A stretch of DNA of 64,000 nucleotides from Candidatus Doudnabacteria bacterium (GTDB lineage Bacteria > Patescibacteriota > Doudnabacteria > UBA920), in NCBI GenBank assembly GCA_031291995.1, contig JARLHZ010000039.1, positions 18,380 to 82,379 on the forward strand, read 5' to 3'. Position numbers and translations under genes: made by a program. The notes beneath the pieces were generated by a model, which did not search any database, was not told where the DNA came from, and was given only the letters and a program-made list of their open reading frames with translations. Positions 15,023 to 44,616 of this stretch are shown here, one piece after another (the stretch's first letter is position 1; each line of letters starts with the position of its first letter).

Positions 15023-16066
15023 CTATAGCAGTCCGATTTTTTGTTTGACTTCCAAAAGTGTTTGACCGGCGACTTTACGGGCACGACTGGCACCGTCGCC
15101 GAGGATTTCGGCCAGGTAGTCCGGCTTGTTTAAGAGTTCTTTTTTCTTTTCGCGAAATTCGGCAAAGAAATTATAAATGTCGTCCGCCAGGGTTTGTTTG
15201 AGCTCGCTGTATTGTAATAATCCTTCGGTTTGTTTGTCCGCGAAATATTTTTTGGTCTTTTCCGGACTAAAGCTGTTCATCAAGAGGAATAAATTATCTA
15301 CCCCGGCGCTGGCTTTACCACTGGCATCCGAAGCCGTTACGGCTTTTTTGAGCTTACGCTGAATTTCTTCCCGGGTATCATCCAAAAGCAACGCTTCGTC
15401 GCCCGTCTTGCTCATTTTTTTGGTCGGGTCCTGCAGGCTCATTATACGCAAAGGCTTTCTAAGATAAGTTTGCGGCTCGGGGAAAATTTTTCCGAATTTG
15501 CCATTGAATTTTTTGGCAATCAACCGCGCCAATTCCACATGCTGGACCTGGTCTTCGCCCACCGGCACGGCCGAAGGTTTGTAGAGCAAAATATCCGCGG
15601 CCATGAGGCACGGGTAGGTGAGCAGGCCGGCATTGGCCACTTCCTTGTTTTGGCTAATCTGGATGCCGATTTTGCCGGCCATGGAAACTTTTTTCCCGCC
15701 GCCCGAGGTTTGTTGTTCCACTTTATCCTTAAACTGCGTCATCCGGTAGAGTTCGCCCAAAGGCGTAATGCAGTTAAATATCCAGGCCAACGTGGCGTGT
15801 TCCAAAACGTGATTTTGTAAAAAGAATGTGGTTTTGTTAGGGTCAATCCCCAAAGACAAATAGGTGGCGGCAATATCCAAAGTATTTTGTGAAAGTTCCT
15901 TGGATTCAAACGGCGTGGTAATCCCGTGCAAATCCGCAATAAAATAAAAGCAGCGGTTATTGGGATCGGCCTGGGTGTCCAATAGCTGTTTAATAAGCCC
16001 CAAATAATGCCCAATATGCAATTTCCCGCTGGCCCGTATCCCGGCTACCAATGTTTGCTGTGTCAT
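15023..16066 (-). CDS. trpS: tryptophanyl-tRNA synthetase
   Basis: HIGH motif (KLHIGHYLG) and KMSKT(GD). ITPFESKEL...GIDPNKTTFFLQNHV...MTQFKDK aligns with bacterial TrpRS. 347 aa. Confidence 0.85.
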   Translation of the reverse strand: MTQQTLVAGIRASGKLHIGHYLGLIKQLLDTQADPNNRCFYFIADLHGITTPFESKELSQNTLDIAATYLSLGIDPNKTTFFLQNHVLEHATLAWIFNCITPLGELYRMTQFKDKVEQQTSGGGKKVSMAGKIGIQISQNKEVANAGLLTYPCLMAADILLYKPSAVPVGEDQVQHVELARLIAKKFNGKFGKIFPEPQTYLRKPLRIMSLQDPTKKMSKTGDEALLLDDTREEIQRKLKKAVTASDASGKASAGVDNLFLLMNSFSPEKTKKYFADKQTEGLLQYSELKQTLADDIYNFFAEFREKKKELLNKPDYLAEILGDGASRARKVAGQTLLEVKQKIGLL

Positions 16067-16150
16067 AAAGAGATTATACCAAAAAACTCCCCAAAAGGGG
16101 AGGTGCTTGCGTAGTTGCCCGATTTATCGAGCCTGTAGCAACAATCACGG

Positions 16151-27400: not shown

Positions 27401-29386
27401 CTATAAGTATTTTTTGATTCTCTCAGCGGCGGCTTTGCCGACAGCGGCGGTCAGCTCCTCCAAAGACGCCTGACGAATGACGGCAACGGTGCCGAATTTT
27501 GCTTTAAGAATTTTTTTGGTTTTGGGACCGATGCCGGGGATTTCGTCGAGCGCCGATTTTACCGCCTGCTTGCTGCGCAGGTCGCGGTGGAAGGTAATGC
27601 CAAAACGATGGGCTTCGTCGCGCAACCTTTGGAGCATTTGGAGCGCCGGATCATCATGCGATAAAATAATCGGCTCGGGTTTGTCGGGCAGGAATATTTC
27701 CTCAATGCGTTTTGCAAGCCCGATAACGTTAATTGATAATTGTGAATTGTGAATTGTTTCCAGCGCAGCGCTGAGCTGGCCTTTGCCGCCATCAATCACT
27801 ATTAAATCAGGAAGCGGCCAACCGCGGAGCCTCTCTTCCTGCAATGGGAGAGTGCCCCGAGCGTTGTCGAGGGGGGGAGGGTTTGGAGTTTTATCGATGC
27901 TTTCTCCAACCACCCCGTTGCCTGACGGCGACACCCCTCCTTGCCAGGAGGGGAGGCTCCGCGCCAAGCGCCTGCTAAGCATTTCTTTCATCATGGCAAA
28001 ATCGTCGGGCGTGGATTTGCCGCGGATTTTAAATTTGCGGTATTGGCTTTTGGCGGGCAGGCCGTTTGTAAACACCACCATACTGCCAACCGGGTTGGTC
28101 CCCTGGATATTGGAAATGTCGTAACATTCAATGCGCCGCGGAATATCGGCAAGCTTTACCGTATCCCTTAACCTTTCCAAAGCCTTATTAATTTTGTCCA
28201 AATGTCCGGCCTGGTCCGACAGCCACTTGCTCAAATATTCCCGGGCATTGACCGAACCCAGGTTGGTTAGCTCCCTGGCTTTACCTTTTTGGGGAGAGAT
28301 GATTGTAATGCCGCGACCGATGCGCGACTTAACCAATTTTATGATCAAGTTAGCATCAGCCGCCGCGTATTGGGTATAAATAATTTTTGGCACACTTGAC
28401 GTCTCAGCATAGTACTGTTCCAAAAATTTTTGCACAATCTCCGTTCCGTAGTTTTCCGTAGTTCCGGATAGGTTCCGTAGTTCCGCATTGGAGATTTCGT
28501 ATACAAAATTTTCCTTGTCCTGCAATTTCCCCCCGCGGACTTTAAATAAGTTTACGCAGGTATAGCCGTCGGAAGACGCCAGGGACACAATATCCCAGTC
28601 CACTTTTTTGGCCAAAATTACGGTTTGCCGCTCATCCAAAAGTTTGATGGAGTTAAGCTGGTCGCGAAGTCGGGCGGCTTTTTCGAATAACTTATGGGCC
28701 GCGGCCAATTTCATTTCGCTTTGCAGCTGGCGGCTGATTTTCCCGGTATTGCCGGCCAGAAAATCTTCGATTTTTTTTAGGTATAACCGGTAATCATCGA
28801 GGCTGATTTTTCCAATGCACACGCCAGGACAGCGGTGCAGGTGGTAATGGAAACAGGGTTTGCCCGAGACTTTTTCGGCCGAGCAATAAGGAAAAATTTT
28901 GCGCATTAAGTGAAGGGTGTTGCGGATTTTGTAGGCGGCTGTGTAGGGGCCGAAGTACTTAGGGGGCAGGGGTGAGGGGTGAGGGGTGAGGGGAGATTTC
29001 TGTACCCTGTACCCTGTACCCTCAACCCTTCTTGAATAGCCGATTTGCGGAATTTCGGTGGAATAATCGATTTTAATGAAGGCGTAATTTTTGTCGTCGC
29101 GCAGTAAAATATTGTATTTGGGCAAATACTGTTTAATAACGGTATTTTCCAAAAACAGGCTTTCCAGTTCGTTATTAACCACGGTATAACTAAAATCCGC
29201 CGCCTCTTTCATCAGATGCGGAATTTGCGGCCGTTCGTCGTGCCCGGAAAAATACTGCCCCACCCGGCTCCTCAAATTTTTGGCTTTCCCAACATACAAA
29301 ACCTTCCCATCTTTATCCAAAAACTGGTAAACACCGGGCGATTTGGGAACATCTTTAAGTTTTTCACGAAGTGGATTCATCGGCAT
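27401..29386 (-). CDS. uvrC: excinuclease ABC subunit C (UvrC) with in-frame low-complexity insertions
   Basis: N-terminal GIY-YIG (GVYQFLDKDGKVLYVGKAKNLRSRV), UvrBC-interacting region, C-terminal (HhH)2 (IPGIGPKTKKIL). Also contains tandem-repeat-encoded segments. Confidence 0.9.
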   Translation of the reverse strand: MPMNPLREKLKDVPKSPGVYQFLDKDGKVLYVGKAKNLRSRVGQYFSGHDERPQIPHLMKEAADFSYTVVNNELESLFLENTVIKQYLPKYNILLRDDKNYAFIKIDYSTEIPQIGYSRRVEGTGYRVQKSPLTPHPSPLPPKYFGPYTAAYKIRNTLHLMRKIFPYCSAEKVSGKPCFHYHLHRCPGVCIGKISLDDYRLYLKKIEDFLAGNTGKISRQLQSEMKLAAAHKLFEKAARLRDQLNSIKLLDERQTVILAKKVDWDIVSLASSDGYTCVNLFKVRGGKLQDKENFVYEISNAELRNLSGTTENYGTEIVQKFLEQYYAETSSVPKIIYTQYAAADANLIIKLVKSRIGRGITIISPQKGKARELTNLGSVNAREYLSKWLSDQAGHLDKINKALERLRDTVKLADIPRRIECYDISNIQGTNPVGSMVVFTNGLPAKSQYRKFKIRGKSTPDDFAMMKEMLSRRLARSLPSWQGGVSPSGNGVVGESIDKTPNPPPLDNARGTLPLQEERLRGWPLPDLIVIDGGKGQLSAALETIHNSQLSINVIGLAKRIEEIFLPDKPEPIILSHDDPALQMLQRLRDEAHRFGITFHRDLRSKQAVKSALDEIPGIGPKTKKILKAKFGTVAVIRQASLEELTAAVGKAAAERIKKYL

Positions 29387-30566: not shown

Positions 30567-33449
30567 ATGCAAGACAAAATAAGTGTCCGGGGAGCCCGGA
30601 TGCACAATTTAAAAAATCTGGACGTGGATTTGCCAAGGAATAAGCTGGTGGTACTAACCGGCTTGTCCGGAAGCGGCAAGTCGTCTTTGGCGTTTGATAC
30701 AATTTACGCCGAAGGCCAGCGCAGGTACGTGGAATCGCTTTCGGCTTATGCCCGACAGTTCATTGGCCTAATGGATAAGCCGGATGTGGACAAAATAGAA
30801 GGGCTGAGCCCGGCCATATCCATCGACCAAAAATCAGCTTCCCATAACCCGCGCTCGACCGTGGGCACGGTTACGGAAATTTACGACTATTTGCGCTTGC
30901 TGTACGCGCGTATTGGCATTCCCCACTGTCCGGTTTGCGGTAAAAAAATTACCGGACAGACTTTGCAGGCTATGGTGGAGCAATTGTTGAATTTGCCAGA
31001 GGGAACCAAGCTGATGCTTTTGGCGCCTTTTGTGCGCGACCAAAAAGGGGAACACAAACATATTTTTGAACAGGTAAAAAAAGCCGGTTTTGCACGCGTT
31101 CGCGTTGACGGCACGGTTATGGATTTAAACGAAGCGCAATCGCTAAACCTCGACAAGCAGAAAAAACATTATATTGACGTAGTGGTAGACCGCATTGCCG
31201 TATCTAAAAACGACCGTTCCCGGATATCGGAAAGTTTGGAAAAAGCTTTGGACTTGGGAGACGGCTTAGTCGTGGTATTGCGGGCTGACGCGGAATCACG
31301 CGGAAATACTGCAACGCGGAACCACGCGGAAAATAATCAAAAAGAAATTACCATGTCGCAGAACTTTGCCTGTCCCGACGGGCATATGTCCTTAAACCAA
31401 CTGGATCCGAGGGATTTTAGTTTTAACAGTCCGCACGGCGCCTGCCCGGAATGCAAGGGCCTGGGCACCAAACTGACAGTGGAGCCCGACCTGGTAATAC
31501 CCAACCAAAGGCTGACTTTGGCCGAAGGAGCCGTGCGCCCCTGGAGCAAAACCACTTCGCGGCTGTCGTGGTATTCCCGCATTATGGAGGCCGTGGCCAA
31601 AGAATACGGTTTTTCCACCAATACCCCGGTTAAAGACCTGCCCAAAAAATTTGTCGATATAATTTTATATGGCACCGGCGACAAAAAAGTCCGCGTCTCG
31701 GGCGAGTTTCGCGGCGGCGAAGGCGAATTTGAAATGAATACCGCATTTGAAGGCGTTATCCCGAACCTCCAGCGCCGCTACCGCGAAACCGATTCCGAAT
31801 ATATGCGCAGTGAAATAGAAAATTACATGCGTGTCCGCCAATGCCAGGTCTGTCTGGGCAAGCGGCTAAAGCCCGAAGTTTTGGCCGTAACCGTGGGCGG
31901 CCGGGGGATTGTGGACGTATCCAACATGCCCATAGATTTAACCGCGGAATTTTTTAAAAATCTGCCCAAAGAGTTGAACGCCAGGGACACGGCCATTGCC
32001 CGGCAAATTTTAAAGGAAATTAACGCGCGCCTGTCGTTTTTATTAAATGTGGGATTGGCTTATTTATCGCTCGACCGTACGGCCGACACGCTTAGCGGCG
32101 GGGAAGCGCAGCGTATCCGACTGGCCACGCAAATCGGGTCCGGTTTGACCGGAGTCCTCTATATATTAGACGAGCCGTCCATTGGCCTACACCAGCGCGA
32201 CAACCGCAAACTCCTCCAGACGCTTAAGGATTTGCGCGATTTGGGCAATACGGTAATTGTGGTGGAGCACGACGAGGAAACCATCCGCGAAGCCGACTGG
32301 GTGGTGGATATTGGCCCGGGCGCGGGCAAGCACGGCGGCGAACTGGTGGCCGAAGGCACTCCCAAAGACATCGAAAAAAATCCCAAGAGCATAACCGGGC
32401 AATATTTGGCCGGCAAGGAATTTATAGAGGTTAGCAAGCGCCGCCGCCCGGGCAACGGGCGCAAGCTGACCATTGTGGGCGCCGAGGAATTTAATTTAAA
32501 AGATATTACTGTGGACATTCCGCTCGGGAAGTTTGTCTGCGTTACCGGCGTGTCGGGCAGCGGTAAATCCACTTTGCTTAACGAAATTCTGGCCAAAGCC
32601 CTGAATCATTATTTTTTTAACAGCAAAGACGAACCGGGCAAGCATAAAAAAATTCTAGGACTGGAACATTTGGACAAAATTATCAACATTGACCAATCGC
32701 CAATCGGGCGGACGCCCCGCAGCAATCCGGCCACTTACACCGGATTGTTTACCCCGATTCGCGATTTGTTTGCCGATACCAAAGAGGCCCGCATGCGCGG
32801 CTATAAATCCGGACGGTTCAGTTTTAACGTTAAAGGCGGCCGGTGCGAAAAATGTTCGGGCGACGGCGTTATTCAGGTGGAAATGAATTTTTTGCCGGAT
32901 GTCTATATTACCTGCGACGAATGCCACGGCAAGCGCTACAACCAGCAGGCGCTGGAAATCCACTATAAAGACAAAACCATTTCCGATGTTTTGGAAATGA
33001 CCGTGGACGAAGCCAAAATCTTTTTTGCCAACTTGCCGCAAATCCACAAAAAACTGGAAACGCTTTCGCAGGTCGGTTTGGGCTATATGAGGCTCGGCCA
33101 AAACGCCACCACTTTGAGCGGCGGGGAAGCGCAACGGATTAAACTGGCTACGGAATTGTCGCGCGCGTCCACCGGGCGGACTTTATATTTGCTGGATGAG
33201 CCGACTACGGGATTGCACTTTGCCGATATTAAACGGCTAGTCCAGGTACTGAATAAATTGGTGGACAAAGGCAATACGGTGGTGGTCATTGAACATAATT
33301 TGGACATGATTAAAACCGCGGACTGGCTAATAGACTTAGGCCCCGAAGGCGGCAACAAAGGCGGCACGCTGGTAGCCGCGGGCACGCCGGAAGATGTGGT
33401 TAAAGTAAAAGCCAGTTACACCGGGCAGTATTTAAAAAAAATGCTGTAA
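30567..33449 (+). CDS. uvrA: excinuclease ABC subunit A (UvrA)
   Basis: 960 aa. Two ABC ATPase modules ([23 protein letters not shown]; [10 protein letters not shown]), Zn-finger cysteines and LSGGEAQRI signatures. Confidence 0.95.
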
Positions 33450-33460
33450 AGATTTACAAA

Positions 33461-33486
33461 AAAATCCCATGTTGGGATTTTTTTGT
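33461..33486 (+). terminator. Rho-independent terminator of uvrA
   Basis: Stem AATCCCA TGT TGGGATT followed by TTTTTG. Confidence 0.7.
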
Positions 33487-34242: not shown

Positions 34243-34372
34243 CATCATTGTCATTGCGAGACACGTACCGGACGGTACTGTGGCAAGGGAGTGTCCGCCG
34301 GAGGCGCATCTGCCTCAGGCACGACACCAGACGAAGCAATCTATCGATTGAAGATTTAATAAGATTGCTTCC
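34243..34372. repeat. dispersed palindromic repeat (CATTGCGAG...CGAAGCAATCT / AGATTGCTTCC family), copy 1
   Basis: Shares the GTCATTGCGAG and GAAGCAATCT modules with copies at 37615.., 43020.. and an intragenic fragment at 40795... Terminal hairpin GAAGCAATCT...AGATTGCTTC. Confidence 0.65.
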
Positions 34373-34494
34373 AATTATGCCGAAACTGCGGCGGTCCGGT
34401 CGGATGTTCCTACAACGACAAAAAATCAGTAAATTAGCATAAACCGCACAGGATAAATCTAAACCTTTTTGGTTTATGTTAGAGAAAGTAATAT

Positions 34495-36579
34495 ATGATA
34501 AAAAAATTATTAACCAGACTTGGCATAGCGGGCGGAACTTTGGCGATTATTATTGCCGGGGCCGCGGCCTTTAGCGCGTTTGAGGCGCACGTAGTCAATG
34601 TGACGGCGTCCATCAACAACGCTTTAACGGTGCCGCAGGAGGCAAGCGGTATAAGCTTTGGGGCAATTTTTCCCGAAGAAGTCGCGCACCAGCCGCTGAA
34701 CGTCTCTTTGAGCACTTCGTTTTTGAACGAGTCGCGCGTGGACGACGTTTCGTACATGATTCGCCAAAAGCCGAAATGCGTGAGCGACACCGACCCGAGC
34801 GTGCATCCGCAGGTTACCGAACAAGGGGTGACTTTTGTTTGTCCGGCCGGCTCGCACCAAATGCCCCTGCTCTGCCCGTATTTGTCCAAGCATTTGGTAA
34901 CGGGAAATTGTAATCCCGACCTGCCGGTGGGCACCGAAGGCTCCTGCACCGGCATAGACGCGTTCCATGGCACGGCCAGCTCCACTTTGTGGACGGAAAC
35001 CGTAACCGAAGCCACCCAGGTAAACGGCCACCTTGTAAAAGGAGGCAATACCACCGACAACTGGGACATAGATTTGCACGCGCCCTGCTTTAAAGGAATG
35101 TGCGCCCAGGACAACGTAATTCCTGCCGACTTCCAACCCGACCCCAGCTTAGAAGGCCAAACCTTCGGCTGTGACCTTTGGGTGGAAGTTAACGGCATTA
35201 GCACAACAACGGAAACCGGGACCGGAACTTTAACCGTTACTAAAGTGGTTGTCGGCGGAACCAAAGTAGTTTCCGATTTTCCGCTGTTTGTTGACGGCGC
35301 ATCGGTGACATCCGGAGTTACCGCTACCACAACCGCGACTACCCATCAGGTCTCGGAAACTTCCGACCCCGATTACGTAGGCACCTTTAGCGGCGACTGC
35401 GGCTCAACCGGTCTAGTCACCGTCCCCCCCAACGGAAGTGCCTCGTGTACATTAACCAACACCTTTGACCCACGACCGGGAACTTTGACTATCGTCAAAA
35501 ATACAACCGGTGGCAACGGCACGTTTGACTTTACCGTCACGGGTGCTTCCTCATCGTCTCCAAGCATTACTACGGTAGGCGGTACCGGCACGACGGGTTC
35601 CATGACAGTTGGTTCCGGCACTTATACCGTATCGGAAACTGTACCGGACGGCTGGGCACTGGGCACGGCTACTTGTGATGATGGTACATCCTCATTAACG
35701 GATAATACCATCTCAAACATCAAGATTGCTCCAGCCAGCAATGTTACTTGTACGTTTAACGATAGTAAAAATACGGGAACTATTACAGTTTATAAAGTTG
35801 TAAACAACAATGGCTTAGGTACTTCCACGCCAGCGGATTTCCAGATGCAAATCGACGGTTCCAGTGTGGCGCAAGGAGCAACTACAACCGAAGCCACCGG
35901 CCTGCATACTGTTTCAGAAGCCAATGCCGGTCCCTACGTTACTTCCTTTAGTGGTGACTGTAACACCAGCGGCCAAATAACTTTGGCCACTAAGCAAGCC
36001 GCGGTTTGTGTTGTTACGAATACGTTTCCCATAGCAAGTTTAAAGATCGTTAAAACGGTGAATAATATTCACGGTGGCACCGCAGCCATTTCAAGCTTTA
36101 CCTATTTTGTAGGTTCAACCCAAGTACAAAATAATACAGTAACGAACTTCATCCCTGGAACTTATAATATTTCCGAAGGTGGGGTAAGGGGTTATAGTGC
36201 CACATTTAGTGGGGCGTGTAATGGTGTTAATTCCGTAACTTTGCACGCCGGAGATAACGTCGAATGTGACATAACAAATACCGATATTGCGCCGGTAATC
36301 AGTTTGAATCTCAATATAACCGGTACTGGAACAGCCACAACCAGTGACTTTAATATGTTCATTGATGGGACTTTCGTTCCGCAGAATAGTTCACAATCGG
36401 TGACTTCTAATGCCAGTCACTCTATTACTATTACCGGCAATAACCATACATCAGGCTATACAAATTCCGGAGTCACTGGTACATCAGCATTTGGCGTAAG
36501 TTGTCCCGCATCTCTGCCAGGTAATGTAACTTTGACTCCTGGTGATTCAATCTCGTGTACTATAACGGAAACCCATTAG
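34495..36579 (+). CDS. secreted surface protein, paralogue 1 of the SAFEAHVVNVTA family; conserved Cys-containing N-domain plus prealbumin-like/Cna-B-type repeats
   Basis: N-terminal K-rich start, hydrophobic core and AAAFSAFEAHVVNVTA junction resembling SipW-cognate signals. Conserved blocks FGxxFP(E/Q)E, CPAG..MPLLCPYLSK, WDIDLH.PCFKG.CAQD, GCDLW.EV.GI. C-terminal repeats with GxYTVSE..P.GW.L...C. Confidence 0.8.
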   Translation: MIKKLLTRLGIAGGTLAIIIAGAAAFSAFEAHVVNVTASINNALTVPQEASGISFGAIFPEEVAHQPLNVSLSTSFLNESRVDDVSYMIRQKPKCVSDTDPSVHPQVTEQGVTFVCPAGSHQMPLLCPYLSKHLVTGNCNPDLPVGTEGSCTGIDAFHGTASSTLWTETVTEATQVNGHLVKGGNTTDNWDIDLHAPCFKGMCAQDNVIPADFQPDPSLEGQTFGCDLWVEVNGISTTTETGTGTLTVTKVVVGGTKVVSDFPLFVDGASVTSGVTATTTATTHQVSETSDPDYVGTFSGDCGSTGLVTVPPNGSASCTLTNTFDPRPGTLTIVKNTTGGNGTFDFTVTGASSSSPSITTVGGTGTTGSMTVGSGTYTVSETVPDGWALGTATCDDGTSSLTDNTISNIKIAPASNVTCTFNDSKNTGTITVYKVVNNNGLGTSTPADFQMQIDGSSVAQGATTTEATGLHTVSEANAGPYVTSFSGDCNTSGQITLATKQAAVCVVTNTFPIASLKIVKTVNNIHGGTAAISSFTYFVGSTQVQNNTVTNFIPGTYNISEGGVRGYSATFSGACNGVNSVTLHAGDNVECDITNTDIAPVISLNLNITGTGTATTSDFNMFIDGTFVPQNSSQSVTSNASHSITITGNNHTSGYTNSGVTGTSAFGVSCPASLPGNVTLTPGDSISCTITETH

Positions 36580-36643
36580 AAATAAACCAAAATAGTTTCC
36601 GCTTTAATCGGAAACCAATAAATAAAAGTAATTAAGTAATCCT

Positions 36644-37393
36644 ATGAAAAAATTATTTATGCGCGCGGGGTTGGCGGCTGGGACTTTGGGGCTGATTATT
36701 GCCGGCGCCGCGGCGTTCAGCGCTTTTGAAGCGCATGTGGTCAACGTGACCGCGACCATCAGCAATGCCACGGATATTTCCACCTCGGAAATAACTTTTG
36801 GCAATGTATTCCCGCAGGAAATCCTGCACAATCCCATAACCCTTTCCTTGTCCTCGTCATTCTTGAGCGCTTCCAATACCAGGGCTTCGATTGTAGACTA
36901 CGTTCTTAAACAGAAGCCGAAGTGTATGGCTACCGATCCTGCTAACGCGGTTCAGTTCGCCCAGGTTGTTGATGTTCCCGGCGCAGAAGGCGGTCCGGTA
37001 ACCTTTACCTGCCCCGCAGGCTATACGGAAATGCCCCTGCTTTGCCCGTACTTATCTAAAACCAGCCCGACCCAGGGAGACACCAGCGTGCCATCCTTTC
37101 ACGGAACGACCGATTTAGCTTCCTGGACCGACGCGGTTAGCATGGCCACGGAAGCCAGCGGACAGTTAAGCACAACCGGCGCCACCAGCACCACCTGGGA
37201 TATAGATTTGCACACGCCATGCTTTAAAGGTGAATGTGCCCAGGACTGGGACAGCTTTGTAACTACGGCCAATCCGGCTGTAAACGAGAACGCCTCCATT
37301 ACCCCGGAGTACTACGAGGCAGACCCGGCCGACCAGAATGTGCCAATGGGCTGCGACTTATGGTATGAAGTCAGCGGAATTGGCCAACCATAA
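36644..37393 (+). CDS. secreted surface protein, paralogue 2 (N-domain only)
   Basis: Same signal and all conserved blocks as paralogue 1. 249 aa. Confidence 0.8.
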   Translation: MKKLFMRAGLAAGTLGLIIAGAAAFSAFEAHVVNVTATISNATDISTSEITFGNVFPQEILHNPITLSLSSSFLSASNTRASIVDYVLKQKPKCMATDPANAVQFAQVVDVPGAEGGPVTFTCPAGYTEMPLLCPYLSKTSPTQGDTSVPSFHGTTDLASWTDAVSMATEASGQLSTTGATSTTWDIDLHTPCFKGECAQDWDSFVTTANPAVNENASITPEYYEADPADQNVPMGCDLWYEVSGIGQP

Positions 37394-37484
37394 TTATAAA
37401 CTGATAAATTTTAATTAAGCAGTTTCAACTAAATTCCCCCCTGCTCTTTACCCGGTTCATTATGGGATGAACCGAAAAAGGGCG

Positions 37485-37531
37485 GGGGAGGGTCTGCTTG
37501 TTAATTAATTTTAATGAGCAGGCCCTCCCCC
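37485..37531. terminator. strong GC hairpin (GGGGGAGGGTCTGCT...AGCAGGCCCTCCCCC), terminator-like on the minus strand
   Basis: 15-bp near-perfect stem with an A-run upstream and none downstream on plus. Confidence 0.4.
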
Positions 37532-37614
37532 AAAGGATATAAACCACAATAGACAAAATTGACCCCTCCTTCGCTAAAGCTACGGAGGGTAAGCAAAAAT
37601 TAACGAACAAACTG

Positions 37615-37692
37615 TGCCATTGCGAGGGAGTGCATCCGACCGAAGCAATCTTTATCCTCGATAAGATCGCTTCGGCTGCACTCGCGATGACA
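37615..37692. repeat. dispersed palindromic repeat, copy 2 (complete ~80-nt hairpin)
   Basis: 5' arm CATTGCGAGGGAGTGCATCCGACCGAAGCAATCT is complementary to 3' arm AGATCGCTTCGGCTGCACTCGCGATG. Sits in the 5' leader of paralogue 3. Confidence 0.7.
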
Positions 37693-37712
37693 CCCAGGAA
37701 GGAAAATAAATT

Positions 37713-39143
37713 ATGAAAAAATTATTTATGCGCGCGGGATTGGCGACTGGGACTTTGGGGTTGATTATCGCTGGCGCCGCGGCGTTCAGCGCGTTTGAAG
37801 CGCATGTGGTCAATGTGACCGCGACTATAAGTAATGCCACGGATATTACTACATCGGCAATAACTTTTGGCAACGTGTTCCCGCAGGAAATTCTGCATAA
37901 CCCCGTGACGCTTGCCCTCTCCAGCTCATTTTTGAGCCAAAGCAATACCCGGGCCACCAGCGTGGACTATGTAATCAAACAAAAGCCAAAGTGCGCGTTA
38001 ATCCCCGGGATAACCGGAGACTTGCCGCCATACGCCGAAGTTGCCGATAACTCGGACGGGACTTTTGTCTGCCCCACTGGATACCAAGCTATGCCTCTGC
38101 TTTGCCCGTATCTTTCCAAGACTAGCCCGACAGAAGGCGACACCAGCGTCCCGTCTTTCCATGGCCCGACCGATTTAGCTTCGTGGACCGACGCGGTTAG
38201 CGTCGCGACAGAAGCTACCGGCCATTTGACCGCGGCAAACCCCAGCACCACTTGGGATATTGACTTGCACACCCCCTGTTTTTCCGGAGAATGCGCCCAG
38301 GACTGGAACAGCTTTGTAACCGGCGCTAACCCGGCGGTAACAACTACTTCGCAGCCTTATAACACGGCTTATTACCAGGCCTCCTCTACATATCAGGGTC
38401 TGCCCATGGGCTGCGACCTGTGGTACGAAGTCAGCGGAATTGGTACATCCACGGCTCCGAGCCAAAATATTGTTATGGTCGGCGCGGGGGATCTTGCGAC
38501 GAGCACTGTCGACGCCATCGCAAATCCTACAAAGTGGTTTATGTATAATGATGACAATAACACCATAGACAACACAATCGGATCCTTTGTCTCAGGACCG
38601 GCAACGCCGCCATACGGGACCGGAAGCGTCGAGTTTACATTAGGCGCAAATCCGCTTTCCCGCAAAAATATTGCGACCTATCAGTTCTCCGGTACTTCGC
38701 TTTCCGCCATCACGCAAATGTCTTTTGGGGCTTACTCGCATAGCGGAGTGGCCAGCTCAACCGAATCGCCGTTCTTTAATTTTAACGTCGATTTAGTCAA
38801 TTCAAATACTTTCCAGGGTCGATTGGTTTATGTGCCAAGCACCAATAGCGTAACTGTGCCTCAAGACGCATGGAACAGTTTCGATACCATTAACGGCGGC
38901 AACGCACTGTGGACCTGGTCGCATTTTGCCAGCAATGGCAACAAATGGCCCGATAACAATACCAACCAGTACCGCACATGGAATGATATTAAGACCGCAT
39001 TCCCAACCGCAAAGGTTTTGGTTTCAGATCCTTGGTTAGGCGTTCGCGTAGGCGAACCGGGACCGACAAACTATACCGGCGATGTCAATTTCTTTAGCAT
39101 CGCTACCGGCGGAACGCCGACGGTTTATGAATTCCACAATTAG
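37713..39143 (+). CDS. secreted surface protein, paralogue 3
   Basis: Nearly identical N-terminal 60 aa to paralogue 2, the same conserved Cys blocks, and a 250-aa unique C-terminal domain. Confidence 0.8.
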   Translation: MKKLFMRAGLATGTLGLIIAGAAAFSAFEAHVVNVTATISNATDITTSAITFGNVFPQEILHNPVTLALSSSFLSQSNTRATSVDYVIKQKPKCALIPGITGDLPPYAEVADNSDGTFVCPTGYQAMPLLCPYLSKTSPTEGDTSVPSFHGPTDLASWTDAVSVATEATGHLTAANPSTTWDIDLHTPCFSGECAQDWNSFVTGANPAVTTTSQPYNTAYYQASSTYQGLPMGCDLWYEVSGIGTSTAPSQNIVMVGAGDLATSTVDAIANPTKWFMYNDDNNTIDNTIGSFVSGPATPPYGTGSVEFTLGANPLSRKNIATYQFSGTSLSAITQMSFGAYSHSGVASSTESPFFNFNVDLVNSNTFQGRLVYVPSTNSVTVPQDAWNSFDTINGGNALWTWSHFASNGNKWPDNNTNQYRTWNDIKTAFPTAKVLVSDPWLGVRVGEPGPTNYTGDVNFFSIATGGTPTVYEFHN

Positions 39144-39249
39144 AAGACTCTGTAAAGTGGGCATTTACCGGCCCGTTTTACCGGGGTCAATCTTTCACGA
39201 ATCCTTCGTCTCCGAGAGGGGAGGCGGGGGAGGGTGAGGGATAAATTGT

Positions 39250-39330
39250 GAAAATAAATTGCAAATTAAAAATATCAAATTTCAAACCAAACCAAAATTT
39301 CAAAAGTGATTTTATAAGACTATTAAATAT
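39250..39330. repeat. AT-rich intergenic module R1 (AAATTAAAAAT..TCAAAT..CAAAAT family)
   Basis: Partial copy of the modules at 39876..39960 and 40490..40590. Confidence 0.5.
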
Positions 39331-39336
39331 AAAAGT

Positions 39337-39867
39337 ATGACCGAGCCAATGCCGAATTTTATAAATAAGATGCCTCCGGATTTAAGGCCGGGGATTCAAC
39401 CGAATATAAAGCCCAAACAAAGCCTGGGTATTCAGATGCAGGTTATGGAACCGGTAAAAAAGAGATCCGTGGGCAAAATTATTGCCTGGATAATAATTTT
39501 AATAATTGCCATTATCGCGCTTGTCCAATATCTTAACGCCGCCAAATATCCGGCTTTGGTCCAGGTAATAGACCAGGACCGCATTGGCGTAAACCCCACC
39601 GGTAATGCTTTGGACTTTGGCGATTTGCCACGGGACAAAAGCGCCGTGCGCACCGTAAATTTGGTCAGCAAAGGCAATACCGGCAGTTATATAATTGTCC
39701 TAAAAACGGGCGCTGTGGCGGACCTGCTTACCGTAGATAAAAATTATTTTACCCTAAAGCCCCACACTACTGAGCAACTGCAATTTACCGCCTACATCCC
39801 GAACTCGGCCGCTTATAAATATTATCGGGGAGAAGTATTGATATTCCAGATACCGAAGATATGGTAA
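39337..39867 (+). CDS. membrane-anchored protein of unknown function within the sipW cluster
   Basis: 176 aa with one TM (IIAWIIILIIAIIALV) and a beta-rich extracytoplasmic domain. Confidence 0.6.
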   Translation: MTEPMPNFINKMPPDLRPGIQPNIKPKQSLGIQMQVMEPVKKRSVGKIIAWIIILIIAIIALVQYLNAAKYPALVQVIDQDRIGVNPTGNALDFGDLPRDKSAVRTVNLVSKGNTGSYIIVLKTGAVADLLTVDKNYFTLKPHTTEQLQFTAYIPNSAAYKYYRGEVLIFQIPKIW

Positions 39868-39875
39868 AAGTAATG

Positions 39876-39960
39876 ACAAATTAAAAATTTTAAATATCAA
39901 ATCAAAATCAAATTTTAAAATTAAAACTTTGACTTGATTTGTAATTTGATATTTGATATT
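39876..39960. repeat. AT-rich palindromic intergenic module R2
   Basis: Arms AAATATCAAATCAAAATCAAA and TTTGATTTGTAATTTGATATTT are complementary. About 85% identical to R3. Confidence 0.65.
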
Positions 39961-39969
39961 CAGCAACTT

Positions 39970-40482
39970 ATGCCCACAATTGAATCTAAAATAATGTATA
40001 TGGAGCCGAAAGTAACGCCAAGGCCGGTGGCTATGCGGGTGTTTATTGGCATTGCAAAAGTTGCTTTGTATATCGCTTTTGTCGCGGCCGCGGTTTACTA
40101 CACCCCAAAAATTTTATCGCGAACCCTGCATACCCAGTACCCGCTGGCCACCATTACCTCCGGTTCCATGTGGCCGGTTCTAAAAGTTAACGATTTGATA
40201 TTAATGAAAGGCATAACCGCGGACCAGGCGCAAATTGGCCAGATTATTGTTTACCAAAGCGGCAAGGGCTATGTTATTCACCGGCTAATTCGCTTGCAGG
40301 ACGGAAAATTAATTACCCAGGGAGATGCCAACGACGTGGAAGACGCGCCGGTCAGCCCGAGCCAGGTGGTGGGACGGATTGTCTATGTTTTTGGCAGCCA
40401 TCCGTTCAGGATTCCATATTTGGGAATTGTGGCCCGGAGTTTGGGTCCGACGGTGCAGGAATTGGAGAAGGGGAGGAGTTAA
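39970..40482 (+). CDS. sipW: SipW-type (S26B, Ser/His) signal peptidase I
   Basis: N-terminal TM, catalytic-Ser box SGSMWPVL, then GDLILM and His box YVIHRLI. The ORF-track start at 39934 lies inside the palindromic repeat, so ATG 39970 (MPTIESK) is preferred; the start is uncertain. Confidence 0.8.
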   Translation: MPTIESKIMYMEPKVTPRPVAMRVFIGIAKVALYIAFVAAAVYYTPKILSRTLHTQYPLATITSGSMWPVLKVNDLILMKGITADQAQIGQIIVYQSGKGYVIHRLIRLQDGKLITQGDANDVEDAPVSPSQVVGRIVYVFGSHPFRIPYLGIVARSLGPTVQELEKGRS

Positions 40483-40489
40483 AATTACA

Positions 40490-40590
40490 AATTAAAAATT
40501 TTAAATTTCAAGTCAAAATCCAATTCCAAATTTTTAAATTCAAAACTTTGGCATTGATTTGAAATTTGACATTTGACATTTAGCGCCGGG
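40490..40590. repeat. AT-rich palindromic intergenic module R3
   Basis: Arms AAATTTCAAGTCAAAATCCAA and TTGATTTGAAATTTGACATTTGACATTT are complementary. Paralogue of R2. Confidence 0.65.
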
Positions 40591-40612
40591 TCTTTAGCAA
40601 ATCCACTTTATA

Positions 40613-43009
40613 ATGAACCAAAAACACCCGAAAATTAAAAAAGGATTGGATATCGGGGAGCCGAAAATCGGACGGTTGGTTTTAGCCGTGCCGAAACCTA
40701 AATCTAAGGCCAAAAAATTTGTGGCCATGGAAGACATCAGGGCTTCATTTTTAAACTCAGATAGAGATAAAAAGAAAATAGTAAAAATTACTGGTGTCAT
40801 TCCGAGCGCGGCCGGGGAATCCCTTATACCAAAAAAATTATCAAGCGTCGCGAAAACCCCCGAATTAATTCCGGAAATTGACACGGTAAAACCGGAAACT
40901 AAGCCATTAGTTACGACCCAGCCGTTTATTAGCAGTCTGATTATCCGGCAGAAATCGCGGATTAAACTTTTGCCAAAAACATTTACGGCTTTTAAGCTGG
41001 CCGCCTTGACTGTGTTATGCCTAATTGTGAGCATCCCGGCCATGTCGGCTTTTGAAGCGCATGTGGTAAACGTTACCGCCCAGTTAAAAGAAATTACCCC
41101 GCCAACATTAACGCCGCCCGGGAGTTCCGTGGCCTGGGACGACCATAACGGCGGCACTAATTTGTCCGGAAATATTAATGTGGTAATGAGTGATGGTTAC
41201 ATAGACGCGTCGGATATTTATTATACTTTCGGCACCGGCACCATTGACCCGGGCACAGTGCCCAATCCCGTTTGCGGCCAGACCGGGCCAAACGGCGGCG
41301 GGGGAGACAAAACCCTGCCCCAGCAATTAAGCATAAATGCCGATACCGTAATAAAAGCCATTGCCTGCGATGGGATAACCGGTACTGCTCACAGCAGTTA
41401 CGTAAACACCAAAATTTATTCCTTCGGCCAGCCGGTGCAAAATCTGGTCATTAATGAATTCCTGCCAAATCCGACCGGAACCGCGGCGGGCAACCAGGGC
41501 GTATCGGGCGGGCATAATACCGGCAACGGCGGCGAGTGGGTGGAACTCTACAACAACGGCACCTCCACCATAGATACCGACGGCTTCGTGCTGTATGACG
41601 ATTTTGTTCCCACAACCACTCCAGCCAGCCAAACCTGGACCACCAACAGCGATTTTAATTCCGTGCCTCCGCCCATAGAGGGCAGTACAACCGTAAGCGG
41701 AGGCAGTGTGTTATTGACTGCCGGTTCTTTGAGCGGGACATTTGAAAAAGTTTTTGACATCGGCACCAATAAAAAAGCTTCCTGGGGCAATGTTACTATG
41801 GCCAATACCATTACCGATCCGGCCGCTTTGGTTTGCCTGTCCGCGGCTACGTCCGACGACGGCGTTAATTTTACGCCTTACGTCAGCTTGGGCTTGAATT
41901 CGTGCGCCACTGCTTCCTCAACCTCCATCTCCTTGTCCCTGGCCTCCCTGCCCCAGTCGCGCTTTATTAAATGGCAGGCCGCTTTTAGCCGAAACGATGC
42001 GACCAAGGCGCTAAGTTTGAATTCATTGAGCATCAATTACAGTTTTGTTGATTACAATACTTATCACGAATTGGTTATTACGACCGACAACACCAATAAC
42101 ACGTTGGCGCCGGGGACAACTATTATGGATCCGGGCGACTTTTTGGTGGTGTACCGCGACGGCAATCCCAATTTTGATTTGGACTCGCAGGTTAATGCGG
42201 CATCTTTGTATGACGGCCATTTGTATTTGGGCGCGGGACTAATAGACAGCCATGCCTATGACCTGGGCGGGTCCGTGCCGGTTGGTAATTCCATAGCCCG
42301 CATTCCGAACGGCAGCAGCAACTGGGTCGACCCATGCCCCACGCCCGGCGCGCCCAATACGGCGGACTGTTTAATTCCGGCTAATGTTTCCACCACCACG
42401 CCGGACAGCCTGGCAGACGCCACCTCAACGCCCGATTCAACCTCAACGATTATCAGCGATACCGGCGCGACTTCAACTCCGGACACCGCAACTTCCACGG
42501 ATATTAGTGCTGGCGGCAGCAGCGTCACGGCAACTTCAACTGATGCCACCTCGACGCCCGAAGCTGACGGTGCGTCCGATACTACCATTTCCACTTCCAC
42601 GGACGCATCCGCACAAATCCCGCCGCCGGATAATTCCACAACCACGACTGTTTCAACTACTTCTCCCGATTTATCTACAATTACCACTCCGACGCCAACA
42701 CCAGGGACAACGGTACCCGGCAATAATATAGATCAGGCTCCGGCTGATAATTCTTCCGGTGTTTCCACGCCGCCTGTTTCTCCGCCGCCTGTTTCTCCGC
42801 CGCCTTCATCGGATCAAAGCGCACCGGCCAATCCGCCGGTTGACAATTCCGACTCCTCCAAACAGCCCGATGCCATAACCCCGCCGCAGCAAAACCAACA
42901 GCCCGCGGTTACCCCCGCCCCCACCTCCTCCGGCGGCGATGGCTCGCCTCCGCCTCCTCCGCCTGCCGATCCGACACCAGCCACCGCGGATTCATCTTCA
43001 GGCAGTTAA
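40613..43009 (+). CDS. surface protein, paralogue 4: cytoplasmic N-extension, TM with SAFEAHVVNVTA motif, lamin-tail-like domain, P/T/S-rich tail
   Basis: MSAFEAHVVNVTAQLKEI follows a 120-aa N-region that contains a repeat-derived segment (GVIPSAAGESLIP). LVINEFLPNP...EWVELYNNG matches the LTD fold. Confidence 0.75.
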   Translation: MNQKHPKIKKGLDIGEPKIGRLVLAVPKPKSKAKKFVAMEDIRASFLNSDRDKKKIVKITGVIPSAAGESLIPKKLSSVAKTPELIPEIDTVKPETKPLVTTQPFISSLIIRQKSRIKLLPKTFTAFKLAALTVLCLIVSIPAMSAFEAHVVNVTAQLKEITPPTLTPPGSSVAWDDHNGGTNLSGNINVVMSDGYIDASDIYYTFGTGTIDPGTVPNPVCGQTGPNGGGGDKTLPQQLSINADTVIKAIACDGITGTAHSSYVNTKIYSFGQPVQNLVINEFLPNPTGTAAGNQGVSGGHNTGNGGEWVELYNNGTSTIDTDGFVLYDDFVPTTTPASQTWTTNSDFNSVPPPIEGSTTVSGGSVLLTAGSLSGTFEKVFDIGTNKKASWGNVTMANTITDPAALVCLSAATSDDGVNFTPYVSLGLNSCATASSTSISLSLASLPQSRFIKWQAAFSRNDATKALSLNSLSINYSFVDYNTYHELVITTDNTNNTLAPGTTIMDPGDFLVVYRDGNPNFDLDSQVNAASLYDGHLYLGAGLIDSHAYDLGGSVPVGNSIARIPNGSSNWVDPCPTPGAPNTADCLIPANVSTTTPDSLADATSTPDSTSTIISDTGATSTPDTATSTDISAGGSSVTATSTDATSTPEADGASDTTISTSTDASAQIPPPDNSTTTTVSTTSPDLSTITTPTPTPGTTVPGNNIDQAPADNSSGVSTPPVSPPPVSPPPSSDQSAPANPPVDNSDSSKQPDAITPPQQNQQPAVTPAPTSSGGDGSPPPPPPADPTPATADSSSGS

Positions 43010-43019
43010 CAAACCAGTA

Positions 43020-43125
43020 TCATTCCGAGCGACCCTGAGGGAGCCGCCATCGGCGGCGAGCCGAAGGGGAGCCGAGGAATCCCTTAACTCTGATAATAAG
43101 TTTAATGTTAAGGGATCCCTCCGCT
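43020..43125. repeat. dispersed palindromic repeat, copy 3 (CATTCCGAGCG...GAGGAATCCCTTAAC / GTTAAGGGATCCCTC)
   Basis: Variant of the CATTGCGAG family with a 15-bp terminal hairpin. Confidence 0.6.
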
Positions 43126-44616
43126 CCTCAACAATTCCACTACAGAAGGAATTGTCTCGTCGGTCGGGATGACAGAGAATATAATCAAATGATACCTTTG
43201 TTCAAACATCATCAATTGCTAAAAAAAATCGGCCTGACCGCCCTTACAATTTTGCTCGTGGCCGGCGGCAGTATTTGGCAGCAGCGGGTCTTGCAGGTCA
43301 ACGCCGCGGTTCAGGTTTTGCTGGTCAGCCGCACGGCCATTGCGTTTGGTAATGTCTTTCCGGGGCAGGATCCTTCGGAAACCTACACCGTGCAGCTGGA
43401 TACGTCGAGCAATGGCGCAACATATACAACCGGCCTGACGCCGTTGCCCGGTTTGCAAAATTTATGTCCGTTTTTAAACATCAGCAGTATAGATTCGCCG
43501 GCCGAACCGGACACTTTGGGAGCAGCCACGCTCAAACGTCCCGGTGACACTGTAGACAATTGGCAGGTCCAGTTAAGCGTTCCTGGCATAAAAGGCGAAC
43601 TGTCGCAGGACCACGCCGGCGGCATAATTGTCCAGGGCGGAAATTTCGGCTGTAAAATTACCATTACCACAACTACCGATCCGGGAACGATTATAATTTG
43701 CAAAAACAGCGTGGGCGGCACCGGTACTTTTAACTTTACCGGCGATTTGGGAAAATTTTCCATCCAGACTTCTTTGCCGGCTAAAAATAACGGAGTCAGT
43801 TCAAATGGCCAGCAAACCGACCCCTGCAGCCAACCTCCCTGCCCGGCATCCGATGACCATACCACGGGGAGTAACAGCGGCATTGATGATAAAACCAAAT
43901 GCATTACTAATACCACCGTCACCAACTACAACAGCTCAACAATCATAAACGTGCAAAATACCGGCGCTGGCAGCGGCGGCAATGTTATTGGCACCAATTC
44001 CGGCGACGTCAACGGCGGCAAAAATACCAGCGGCAGCGCCACCAGCAACAGCTCGGTGACCACTTACGGAAATTCCATTAATTCCTCGGTGACAACCGGC
44101 GGCAGTAACGGCAGCGGCAACCAAATTTTTGCCAATCTCCAGTCCGGCAGTTATACCGTTTCGGAAAGCTCAAGTACAAATTGGAGCCTGTCTTCATTGA
44201 CCTGCAAAGATCCGGCCAACAATTCCATGGTGTCAGCCAGTTCCGCGAAAATACAGCTGGATTCCGGCGAAACGGTAATTTGTACTTTTGTAAACGAGCA
44301 AAATACCGGAAAAATTATTATCCGAAAAAAAACTGACGGGGGCAACGGCAGTTTTGGATTTACCGGCAATTTGGGTCAGTTTAATATTACGACCGCCTCC
44401 GGCCTGGGCAGCAAGACCTTTTCCGGACTAACACCCGGCGTTTATACCGTTACCGAACCGGCCGACCAAAAAGGCTGGAGTTTGACTGGTTTGACCTGCA
44501 GCGATCCGGGCGGAAACAGCCAAGCCAACAACCGCAGCGCCATTATCCGCCTGGCGCCGGGGGAGACCGTGACTTGCACGTTTACCAATTCAAAAAAAGG
44601 TAAATTGGGCTCGTAA
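43105..44616 (+). CDS. secreted surface protein, paralogue 5 (degenerate N-domain, SGGN-GDVN-TSG module, prealbumin-like repeats)
   Basis: Retains AIAFGNVFPGQDP and CPFLNIS...DNWQVQLSVPGIKGE blocks. C-terminal repeats GVYTVTEPADQKGWSLTGLTCSD. Confidence 0.7.
   Translation: MLRDPSAPQQFHYRRNCLVGRDDREYNQMIPLFKHHQLLKKIGLTALTILLVAGGSIWQQRVLQVNAAVQVLLVSRTAIAFGNVFPGQDPSETYTVQLDTSSNGATYTTGLTPLPGLQNLCPFLNISSIDSPAEPDTLGAATLKRPGDTVDNWQVQLSVPGIKGELSQDHAGGIIVQGGNFGCKITITTTTDPGTIIICKNSVGGTGTFNFTGDLGKFSIQTSLPAKNNGVSSNGQQTDPCSQPPCPASDDHTTGSNSGIDDKTKCITNTTVTNYNSSTIINVQNTGAGSGGNVIGTNSGDVNGGKNTSGSATSNSSVTTYGNSINSSVTTGGSNGSGNQIFANLQSGSYTVSESSSTNWSLSSLTCKDPANNSMVSASSAKIQLDSGETVICTFVNEQNTGKIIIRKKTDGGNGSFGFTGNLGQFNITTASGLGSKTFSGLTPGVYTVTEPADQKGWSLTGLTCSDPGGNSQANNRSAIIRLAPGETVTCTFTNSKKGKLGS

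Follow-up and report, generated by a model that had tools for sequence, protein, structure and literature searches.

The CGTC-tagged repetitive extragenic palindromic (REP) elements constitute a superfamily described by Di Nocera, De Gregorio and Rocco in 2013 (BMC Genomics 14:522, PMC3733652), with the families CGTC-1 to CGTC-4. According to that paper, these elements carry the tag CGTC (often TGTC or CCTC), have stems of 8–9 bp that begin with A-T pairs and loops of 4–5 nt (variable in Bradyrhizobium CGTC-1), end mostly in a CCA tail, and occur predominantly as head-outward (HH) dimers, often heterodimers, with spacers of 20–100 bp. They are located near the 3′ ends of open reading frames (ORFs), and copies inside genes are also described, notably from uvrA/B/C and further repair genes; they are recorded in five phyla, with Neisseria dRS3 and Rickettsia RPE-4/6 as named members; and no associated transposase is described there. 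Here, we analyzed the palindromic repeats in a 64,000-nt stretch of DNA from Candidatus Doudnabacteria (contig JARLHZ010000039.1, positions 18,380–82,379; hereafter the window). We assign these repeats, at a probability of about 70%, to the CGTC-tagged REP elements, present as 3 HH dimers and 1 singleton and acting as non-autonomous hairpin modules. The repeat class is known and very widespread; in the present case, it is found in a groundwater bacterium with a tiny genome, in a variable block of cell-surface protein genes.

The window contains 7 repeat units spread over 4 sites, which we designate c1 (34249–34421), c2 (37615–37692), c4 (40795–40823), and c3 (43018–43174). The sites c1, c2, and c3 are pairs of units and c4 is a single unit; the 3 intergenic copies and 1 intragenic copy listed in an earlier note on this DNA are thus all present. 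The units are as follows:

34249–34341, + strand: left unit of c1, with tag TGTC, stem ATTGC, GA, a 72-nt interior, GAA, stem GCAAT, and C
34363–34421, − strand: right unit of c1, degenerate, with the head GTCGTTGTAG in place of GTCATTGCGAG (two transitions)
37615–37650, + strand: left unit of c2, with tag TGCC, stem ATTGC/GCAAT, and interior GGGAGTGCATCCGACC
37665–37692, − strand: right unit of c2, with tag TGTC and stem ATCGC/GCGAT
40795–40823, + strand: single unit c4, TGTC-ATTCC-GAGCGCGGCCGG-GGAAT-CCC, inside the called 798-aa ORF
43018–43081, + strand: left unit of c3, with tag TATC, stem ATTCC/GGAAT, and an interior with its own GCCGCC/GGCGGC hairpin
43114–43174, − strand: right unit of c3, with tag TGTC, stem ATCCC/GGGAT, and interior hairpin ACAATTCC/GGAATTGT

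The units follow a common plan, which consists of a tag (T/C)GTC, a 5-base stem AT(T/C)(G/C)C, GA, an interior that varies, GA or GAA, the five bases that complement the stem, and C. In each of c1, c2, and c3, 2 inverted units with outward tags form an HH dimer with a spacer of 14–32 nt. The degenerate right unit of c1 retains an intact inner end (GAAGCAATC) and makes the HH dimer hairpin together with the left unit. The c4 unit, for which no right partner was found, had been taken for a fragment; it is a complete monomer with a minimal interior and is of the same subtype as the c3 left unit, with which it shares TCATTCCGAGCG and GGAATCCCTTA.

The repeat termini occur in the window more often than expected by chance. 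The motif GTCATTSCGAG, with at most 1 mismatch, has 5 matches (1.39 expected; none of 100 shuffles reached 5), and the relaxed pattern C-AT-xyz-GA...z′y′x′-AT-C (within 100 nt) has 9 (2.06 expected; maximum of 6 in 100 simulations). Six of these 9 matches are units at the 4 sites, and the remaining 3 correspond to the chance level; pattern scans of the 64-kb window yielded no copy beyond the 4 sites. The segment TGTCATAAAGAG...TTTATC at 16064–16128, which has a TGTC tag and a CTCCCC/GGGGAG hairpin inside, also matches the relaxed unit pattern. It is flanked by the genes for a YafQ-like toxin and a class I (Trp/Tyr-type) tRNA synthetase, is partly conserved in the related locus L208, and is probably a chance match.

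The 2 sequence variants distinguished in the earlier note do exist, but they resolve into 4 stem versions, each kept Watson-Crick complementary within its unit: ATTGC/GCAAT (left units of c1 and c2), ATCGC/GCGAT (c2 right), ATTCC/GGAAT (c3 left and c4), and ATCCC/GGGAT (c3 right). The right stem of c2 differs from its left stem by a compensated T>C / A>G exchange. In the right units of c2 and c3, the changes are perfectly compensated inside the unit, whereas pairing of the left with the right unit would instead create T.G and A.C; the constraint or the origin therefore lies at the level of the unit. The interior helix was compared among 16 distinct equal-length units of the genome scan described below, in which 4 of its 5 pairs vary on both sides. 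Its covariation score of 0.160 exceeds that of the shuffles (0.062, with none of 500 reaching the observed value) and those of slid controls (≤0.053). The conserved secondary structure presumed for the family was borne out by the covarying interior helix and the compensated closing stems.

The folding energies of the dimers are −66 kcal/mol for c1 (z −3.9), −35.9 kcal/mol for c2 (z −4.2), and −81.2 kcal/mol for c3 (z −7.4); in each case, 0 of 200 shuffles folded as well. By contrast, c4 lacks a long hairpin (z +1.6). The claim that each copy forms a long hairpin thus holds for c1, c2, and c3 and not for c4, and thermodynamic significance is restricted to the dimers in this genome.

The 3 dimers lie between co-directional genes. 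The c1 dimer is located within a 1045-nt gap, 74 nt 5′ of a start codon; c2 ends 21 nt before ATG 37713 and 4 nt before its AGGAAGGA; and c3 starts 9–10 nt past the stop codon of the 798-aa gene. The placement of c1 and c2 in paralogue leaders is correct as regards position only; no promoter could be placed. No T-tract signature and no terminator call was found at the copies, and the sequence after c1–c3 is A-rich or mixed; intrinsic terminators were rejected as an identity. Rfam searches at the gathering threshold returned tRNAs only for the window and no match for 16 repeat-bearing loci, and at a permissive threshold the repeat region gave only chance miRNA-like matches (E > 0.5).

These positions (c2 shortly before a start codon, c3 shortly after a stop codon) and the very stable folds might also be explained by regulatory RNA structures, such as leaders, attenuators, or terminators, which evolved locally in the surface-protein paralogue array and are not mobile DNA. 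We consider this very unlikely. The T-tracts and an Rfam family match are missing, the paralogue at 36644 has no copy at all, and uvrC of a relative (described below) contains a copy whose left unit is nearly the same as in c2 (15 of 16 interior bases). Moreover, the same termini recur in unrelated contexts of many phyla, which largely refutes a local origin.

The wide occurrence of the termini was revealed by a genome scan (one genome per species) with the pattern GTCATTSCGAG-N(3-33)-GARGSAATC. At least 120 genome loci match; the census figures given here all refer to the matches listed, which represent at least ten phyla. They include Alpha-, Gamma- and Deltaproteobacteria, Chloroflexota, Bacteroidota, Cyanobacteria, Zixibacteria, Planctomycetota, Sporomusa, and Helicobacter, as well as Patescibacteria with one Doudnabacteria metagenome-assembled genome (MAG). 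Of the 172 units taken from these loci, 106 have C before GTC, 58 have T, 6 have A, and 2 have G; 77 carry the tail CCA, 45 CTC, and 13 CCC; and the interiors measure 4–40 nt. The interiors nearly always begin with G and end with C, and take one of two forms: a simple GC-rich hairpin, or a further G.A/A.G step that encloses a mini-hairpin of the GCGAAGC type. The commonest layout is a + unit followed by a − unit 15–45 nt further on, and the dimers comprise 41 HH, 4 TT, and 5 HT pairs. In a crude positional census, HH dimers between genes were found in 8 convergent, 10 co-directional, and 1 divergent gap, at a median of 22 nt past the upstream stop codon. Singletons (half elements) are common and show a weak orientation bias (21 sense versus 12 antisense, from crude ORF calls).

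A scan of IMG/VR, in which the two middle stem positions were left free, matched at least 120 contigs. Of the 151 pattern matches listed, 74 are ATTGC/GCAAT and 3 are the compensated ATGGC/GCCAT, beyond which the matches listed are noise with respect to closing-stem covariation. The 2 scans agree with the earlier description of a dispersed palindromic family, which extends well beyond this locus. In one IMG/VR contig (L247, 3339–12744), 6 single units, all opposite in strand to a co-directional gene run, each occupy a short gap after a stop codon, so that a gene array is "punctuated" in an unrelated contig as well.

Co-directional genes separated by imperfect palindromes of 76–170 nt could also suggest attC-like recombination sites of gene cassettes, that is, an integron-like array. 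This identity is barely conceivable and was rejected, as were CRISPR-like arrays: the repeat ends are GTCATT.../...AATGAC with no GTTRRRY/RYYYAAC core sites, no integrase was found among the window ORFs scanned, single units occur alone and inside ORFs, and the same sequence is scattered through ordinary chromosomes.

Comparison of the window and census units with the published CGTC REPs revealed that (i) both have a (C/T)GTC tag, and in the window the tags are TGTC (four), TGCC (one), and TATC (one), of which the latter two are degenerate; (ii) the stem runs AT...AT, with the AT(T/C)(G/C)C start and the complementary ...AT end present in 7 of 7 window units; (iii) the tail is short and C-rich, with CCA commonest in the census, but the window tails are CTA, CTT, CTT, CCC, CCC, and CCC, in which only the first C is constant; (iv) HH dimers, often heterodimers, predominate in the window and in the census; (v) the copies are found just 3′ of ORFs, between co-directional or convergent genes; and (vi) intragenic in-frame copies occur occasionally, notably in uvr genes, and no associated transposase is known for the published families or was found among the window ORFs scanned. 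Unlike the phylum list of 2013, ours includes Patescibacteria, which belong to the candidate phyla radiation (CPR), and several other census phyla that are not among its five. The ATTCC...GGAAT-type core after GTC resembles that of Neisseria dRS3 and Rickettsia RPE-4 and RPE-6, as judged from the published descriptions and peptides only. By contrast, the ATTCCCGC/GCGGGAAT stem of dRS3 and CGTC-1 is fully paired and its loop has 4 nt, whereas GAG...GA junctions and large interiors are found in the window copies.

In REPIN-RAYT systems, which are built on GTAG REPs (Bertels and Rainey 2011; Nunvar 2010), 2 inverted hairpin units and a spacer likewise move together, and the likely recognition feature is likewise a single-stranded hairpin with a conserved flanking tetranucleotide. 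However, the present units carry the tag (C/T)GTC in place of GTAG, the 64-kb window yielded no RAYT/Y1 transposase gene, and REPIN sequences differ between species whereas the CGTC termini are alike across phyla. Membership in this system was ruled out on the basis of the tags and the lack of a Y1 transposase in the window.

No paper combining CPR and REPs was found in the literature, and a full-text search with the raw motifs returned unrelated primers only. A survey tool of 2025 (PMC12306157) cites Di Nocera et al. 2013 and is silent on Patescibacteria. The superfamily is known, and we found no prior record of CGTC REPs in Patescibacteria/CPR; well-formed copies in a CPR bacterium widen its host range.

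The best single evidence for movement of the element as an entire unit from tag to tag, with its stems kept paired, comes from uvrC of the related genome L206. When UvrC of the window was aligned with UvrC of three relatives, the hypervariable linker after ...RRV(D/E) was found to contain 29 extra codons (RRHSEGVQPTEESQNKGSFAPRVHSGLRMT) in L206, which correspond to the following insert:

L206, 7090–7176, − strand: uvrC insert, a CGTC HH dimer of exactly 87 nt

The DNA of the insert reads CGTCATTCTGAG...GAAGAATC, spacer, GATCCTTCG...CAGGATGACG, and encodes the peptide SFRRHSEGVQPTEES. The insert begins at a codon boundary and is flanked by CCGG on either side; its excision joins ...RRVDSFR to PEKDKYFGPY... 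with no stop codon, whereas cutting out 4 further nt, as a putative CCGG duplication, produces 24 stop codons in uvrC. In a BLAST comparison of c1–c4 with all fetched loci, only c2 had a relative, and this relative is the L206 insert. The interior of the L206 left unit is identical to GGGAGTGCATCCGACC of c2 at 15 of 16 positions, and the closing stem, ATTCT/AGAAT as opposed to ATTGC/GCAAT in c2, has 2 pairs changed on both sides. The L206 right unit (ATCCT/AGGAT) has C at stem position 3, which reproduces the left/right asymmetry of c2 and c3. The insert thus provides a clean example of tag-to-tag insertion in which the closing stems change by compensation and the interior stays constant.

The same comparison bears on the suggestion that the repeats are mobile elements similar to MITEs (transposable elements that are miniature and bear inverted repeats). 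Classical MITEs are deletion derivatives of insertion sequences (ISs), which are moved by the IS transposase via terminal inverted repeats and leave target-site duplications. The dimers are multicopy, intergenic inverted-repeat structures of 76–170 nt, as would be expected of such elements. However, the sole clean comparison of a filled with an empty site shows an exact 87-nt insertion with no target duplication and excision of these 87 nt restores the uvrC frame; no direct repeats flank c1–c4; half elements are common; conservation across phyla is confined to the short termini, and an IS-like interior is missing; no transposase was found among the window ORFs scanned; and none is linked to CGTC repeats in PMC3733652. 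We therefore regard classical MITEs as improbable. The suggestion is apt if the term is taken loosely, for a small element that is non-autonomous, but the type is that of a CGTC REP and not of an IS-derived MITE with terminal inverted repeats and target-site duplications.

Three further observations were made in the window and its relatives. First, the window linker after ...RRVEG (28955–29020, − strand), the same hypervariable UvrC site that holds the REP dimer in L206, is made of the tandem repeats (GGGTACA)x3 and (CCCCTCA)x3. Second, a different palindromic element at 27826–27963 (− strand), with the arms CGCGGAGCCTC/GAGGCTCCGCG, inner CCCTCC...GGAGGG hairpins, and no CGTC tag, encodes ~45 aa inserted in the endonuclease domain of UvrC; the related locus L205 shares this element, and L206 and L208 lack it. 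Third, L205 carries a singleton (GTCATCCCGG...CCGGGATC) 3′ of an SBP gene, which has no counterpart in the window at this place (the alignment is poor). The small variable inserts among 120 UvrA homologues included none that was clearly CGTC-encoded.

The assignment to CGTC REPs, together with the L206 insert, leads us to propose that the elements are non-autonomous DNA that would spread as whole tag-to-tag units, probably via a single-stranded hairpin intermediate recognized by an enzyme acting in trans, which would be encoded outside this window. Each unit would present an unpaired 5′ tag (C/T)GTC, an AT-first closing stem, sheared-type G.A/A.G positions, a GC-rich interior hairpin free to vary, and a C-rich tail. 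Once inserted between co-directional genes, the elements would be co-transcribed and fold into very stable stem-loops, which may serve as RNA decay barriers or as partial punctuation of the surface-protein transcripts, as has been proposed for REPs generally. The REP/BIME sequences of Escherichia coli are mRNA stabilizers and translation-coupled regulators. The c3 dimer, with its stable stem-loop ~10 nt past the stop codon, resembles them in this respect, but it belongs to a different sequence family, and its RNA role is one that we infer.

Several points weigh against this reading. (i) The closing stem consists of only 5 Watson-Crick pairs in the window units, or ~8 "pairs" if G.A is counted (5 Watson-Crick pairs, the GA/GA(A) positions, and a G-C pair), and the interiors measure ~8 to 72 nt, unlike the 8–9 bp stems and 4–5 nt loops published for CGTC REPs. 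(ii) The single units, folded alone as DNA, are marginal and not significant (z −2.4 to +0.5), and the support for a unit structure therefore rests on the compensated substitutions. (iii) The 4 sites share only their termini of ~11–13 nt and no other sequence, so that recent copying in this genome is not indicated. (iv) No transposase, integrase, or Y1/HUH protein was found among the ORFs scanned, which is weak evidence as the scan covered 64 kb only; the census of the host genome is likewise limited to 64 kb. (v) The ATTGCGAG...CGAAGCAAT subtype was set against the published families by their text descriptions only. (vi) The role of the dimers at the RNA level is purely inferred.

The superfamily of CGTC REPs is an orphan, widespread and alike in sequence across phyla, with no known mobilizing enzyme. 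Because near-identical left units occupy unrelated sites in 2 related genomes and no RAYT/IS200-type transposase was seen, CGTC REPs might currently be mobile in Doudnabacteria, which we regard as doubtful. If they were, the mover would be a housekeeping or unrecognized enzyme shared across phyla, and the very small CPR proteome would make such a "CGTC transposase" findable by phylogenetic profiling. Doudnabacteria genomes are only about 1 Mb, and small genomes are a place to seek the missing enzyme.

The intragenic unit c4 is translated as VIPSAAGES within the 798-aa ORF, the N-terminal extension of which contains GVIPSAAGESLIP. The published repeat-encoded peptides include VIPAKAGI, SFRGEAVEPGIQ, LDSRLRGND, and VIPGLDPGIH (PMC3733652, Additional file 3); they back-translate to units of the form GTCATTCC... 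and GTCATCCC..., which are read in the frame used by c4. The 798-aa gene is called from ATG 40613, and 119 codons free of stops precede the paralogue-type start in this frame, as in 0.0003 of shuffles. The codon-usage score of this extension is +0.17 overall and +0.15 and +0.16 on either side of c4, as compared with +0.30 ± 0.12 for coding windows, −0.70 ± 0.22 for off-frame windows, and negative values for intergenic DNA. An AT-rich repeat just before 40613, which is also found ahead of two upstream genes, likewise favors coding. On the other side, three paralogues start at the equivalent of codon 120 (TTG 40970), with equal spacing to the signal-peptide end motif SAFEAHVVNVTA, and no homologues were found for the first 165 residues. 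The metagenome relatives of the 798-aa protein cover the LTD domain only (residues ~235–780), and thus no empty site is available for c4. On balance, we lean slightly toward c4 being coding, in which case it would belong to a pre-cleavage N-terminal extension, and an insert there would do no harm.

It had been concluded from c4 that invasion of an ORF by the repeat is tolerated. For c4 itself this is plausible only; the clean proof that in-frame insertion is tolerated in this lineage is the L206 uvrC insert. Rickettsia RPEs are likewise known for in-frame insertion into ORFs. A second gene start is also concerned: the 503-aa SpaA-fold gene is called from ATG 43105, inside the loop of the c3 dimer, so that the first 28 codons of the called gene derive from the repeat. 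ATG 43189 is the likelier start according to the alignment of the paralogues. Thus, the annotated start at 43105 is probably affected by repeat codons, and the 119-codon extension of the 798-aa gene is possibly so.

The repeats are located in a gene block next to uvrA. The UvrA protein (30567–33449) has an identical counterpart in a Candidatus Doudnabacteria MAG, and its closest relatives are from Doudnabacteria/Patescibacteria. In three related Doudnabacteria (UvrA 92, 87, and 86% identical), sortase or type IV pilus genes lie 0.5–4 kb past uvrA, whereas in the window such genes are found at ~61.0–64.0 kb. Thus, we define the intervening DNA as a lineage-specific island:

33450 to ~60800, + strand: island of ~27 kb, with surface-protein genes between uvrA and the sortase/type IV pilus genes

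The island products are surface or adhesin-like proteins, with SpaA-fold, LTD, YDG/MBG, CHB_HEX_C, PG-binding, and VWA+DUF11 features; no recombinase was found at the island borders. The island is absent from the three relatives, one of which has a different 4-kb insert at this place, and therefore an empty-site comparison downstream of uvrA is not available. Contigs of the same strain in Logan are 99.995–100% identical to the window and show no variation at the repeats. All repeat sites fall within the first 10 kb of the island; since the rest of the window also has many long gaps between genes, available space alone cannot explain this clustering.

The earlier note also proposed that the repeats drive recombination among the paralogues. 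In this case, they would be the substrates or breakpoints that built and shuffle the paralogue array or the island, as might be suggested by the location of all copies within a lineage-specific variable island and by the distance of only 14 nt between c2 and the start of one duplicated block. However, the copies share only ~11–13 nt of identity, and the blocks of paralogue DNA similarity start at 34490, 36636, and 37705, that is, 5–8 nt ahead of each start codon. No repeat lies close to the block at 36636 (paralogue 36644), and 70 nt separate c1 from its block. Furthermore, neither island border (33450 and ~60800) carries a copy. The proposal was not supported, recombination breakpoints were rejected as an identity, and we consider such a role highly improbable.

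Several other features were observed in and next to the island. A perfect 14-bp hairpin (ACAAAAAAATCCCA/TGGGATTTTTTTGT) at 33456–33486, 7 nt past the uvrA stop codon, looks like a bidirectional terminator. Gene 36644 and c2 have a strong hairpin, GGGGGAGGG.../...CCCTCCCCC, between them, and CCCTCC...GGAGGG GC-rich hairpins occur twice as compared with 0.1 expected; these hairpins (37484–37531 and 37564–37589; 27935–27952) may represent a second small hairpin family or terminators. An AT-rich segment of ~58 nt with internal inverted repeats occurs 3 times (39257–39314, 39872–39929, and 40483–40540; 72–100% identity), directly preceding the consecutive genes for a 176-aa protein, an S24-like peptidase, and the 798-aa LTD protein, and may be a shared promoter or operator. 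Finally, the motif SAFEAHVVNVTA is encoded at 34576–34607, 36722–36753, 37791–37822, and 41048–41079 with 81–94% nucleotide identity, in 4 otherwise diverged surface-protein genes. Because these genes adjoin the S24-like peptidase gene (39934–40482), a dedicated signal peptidase and its substrate set are suggested.

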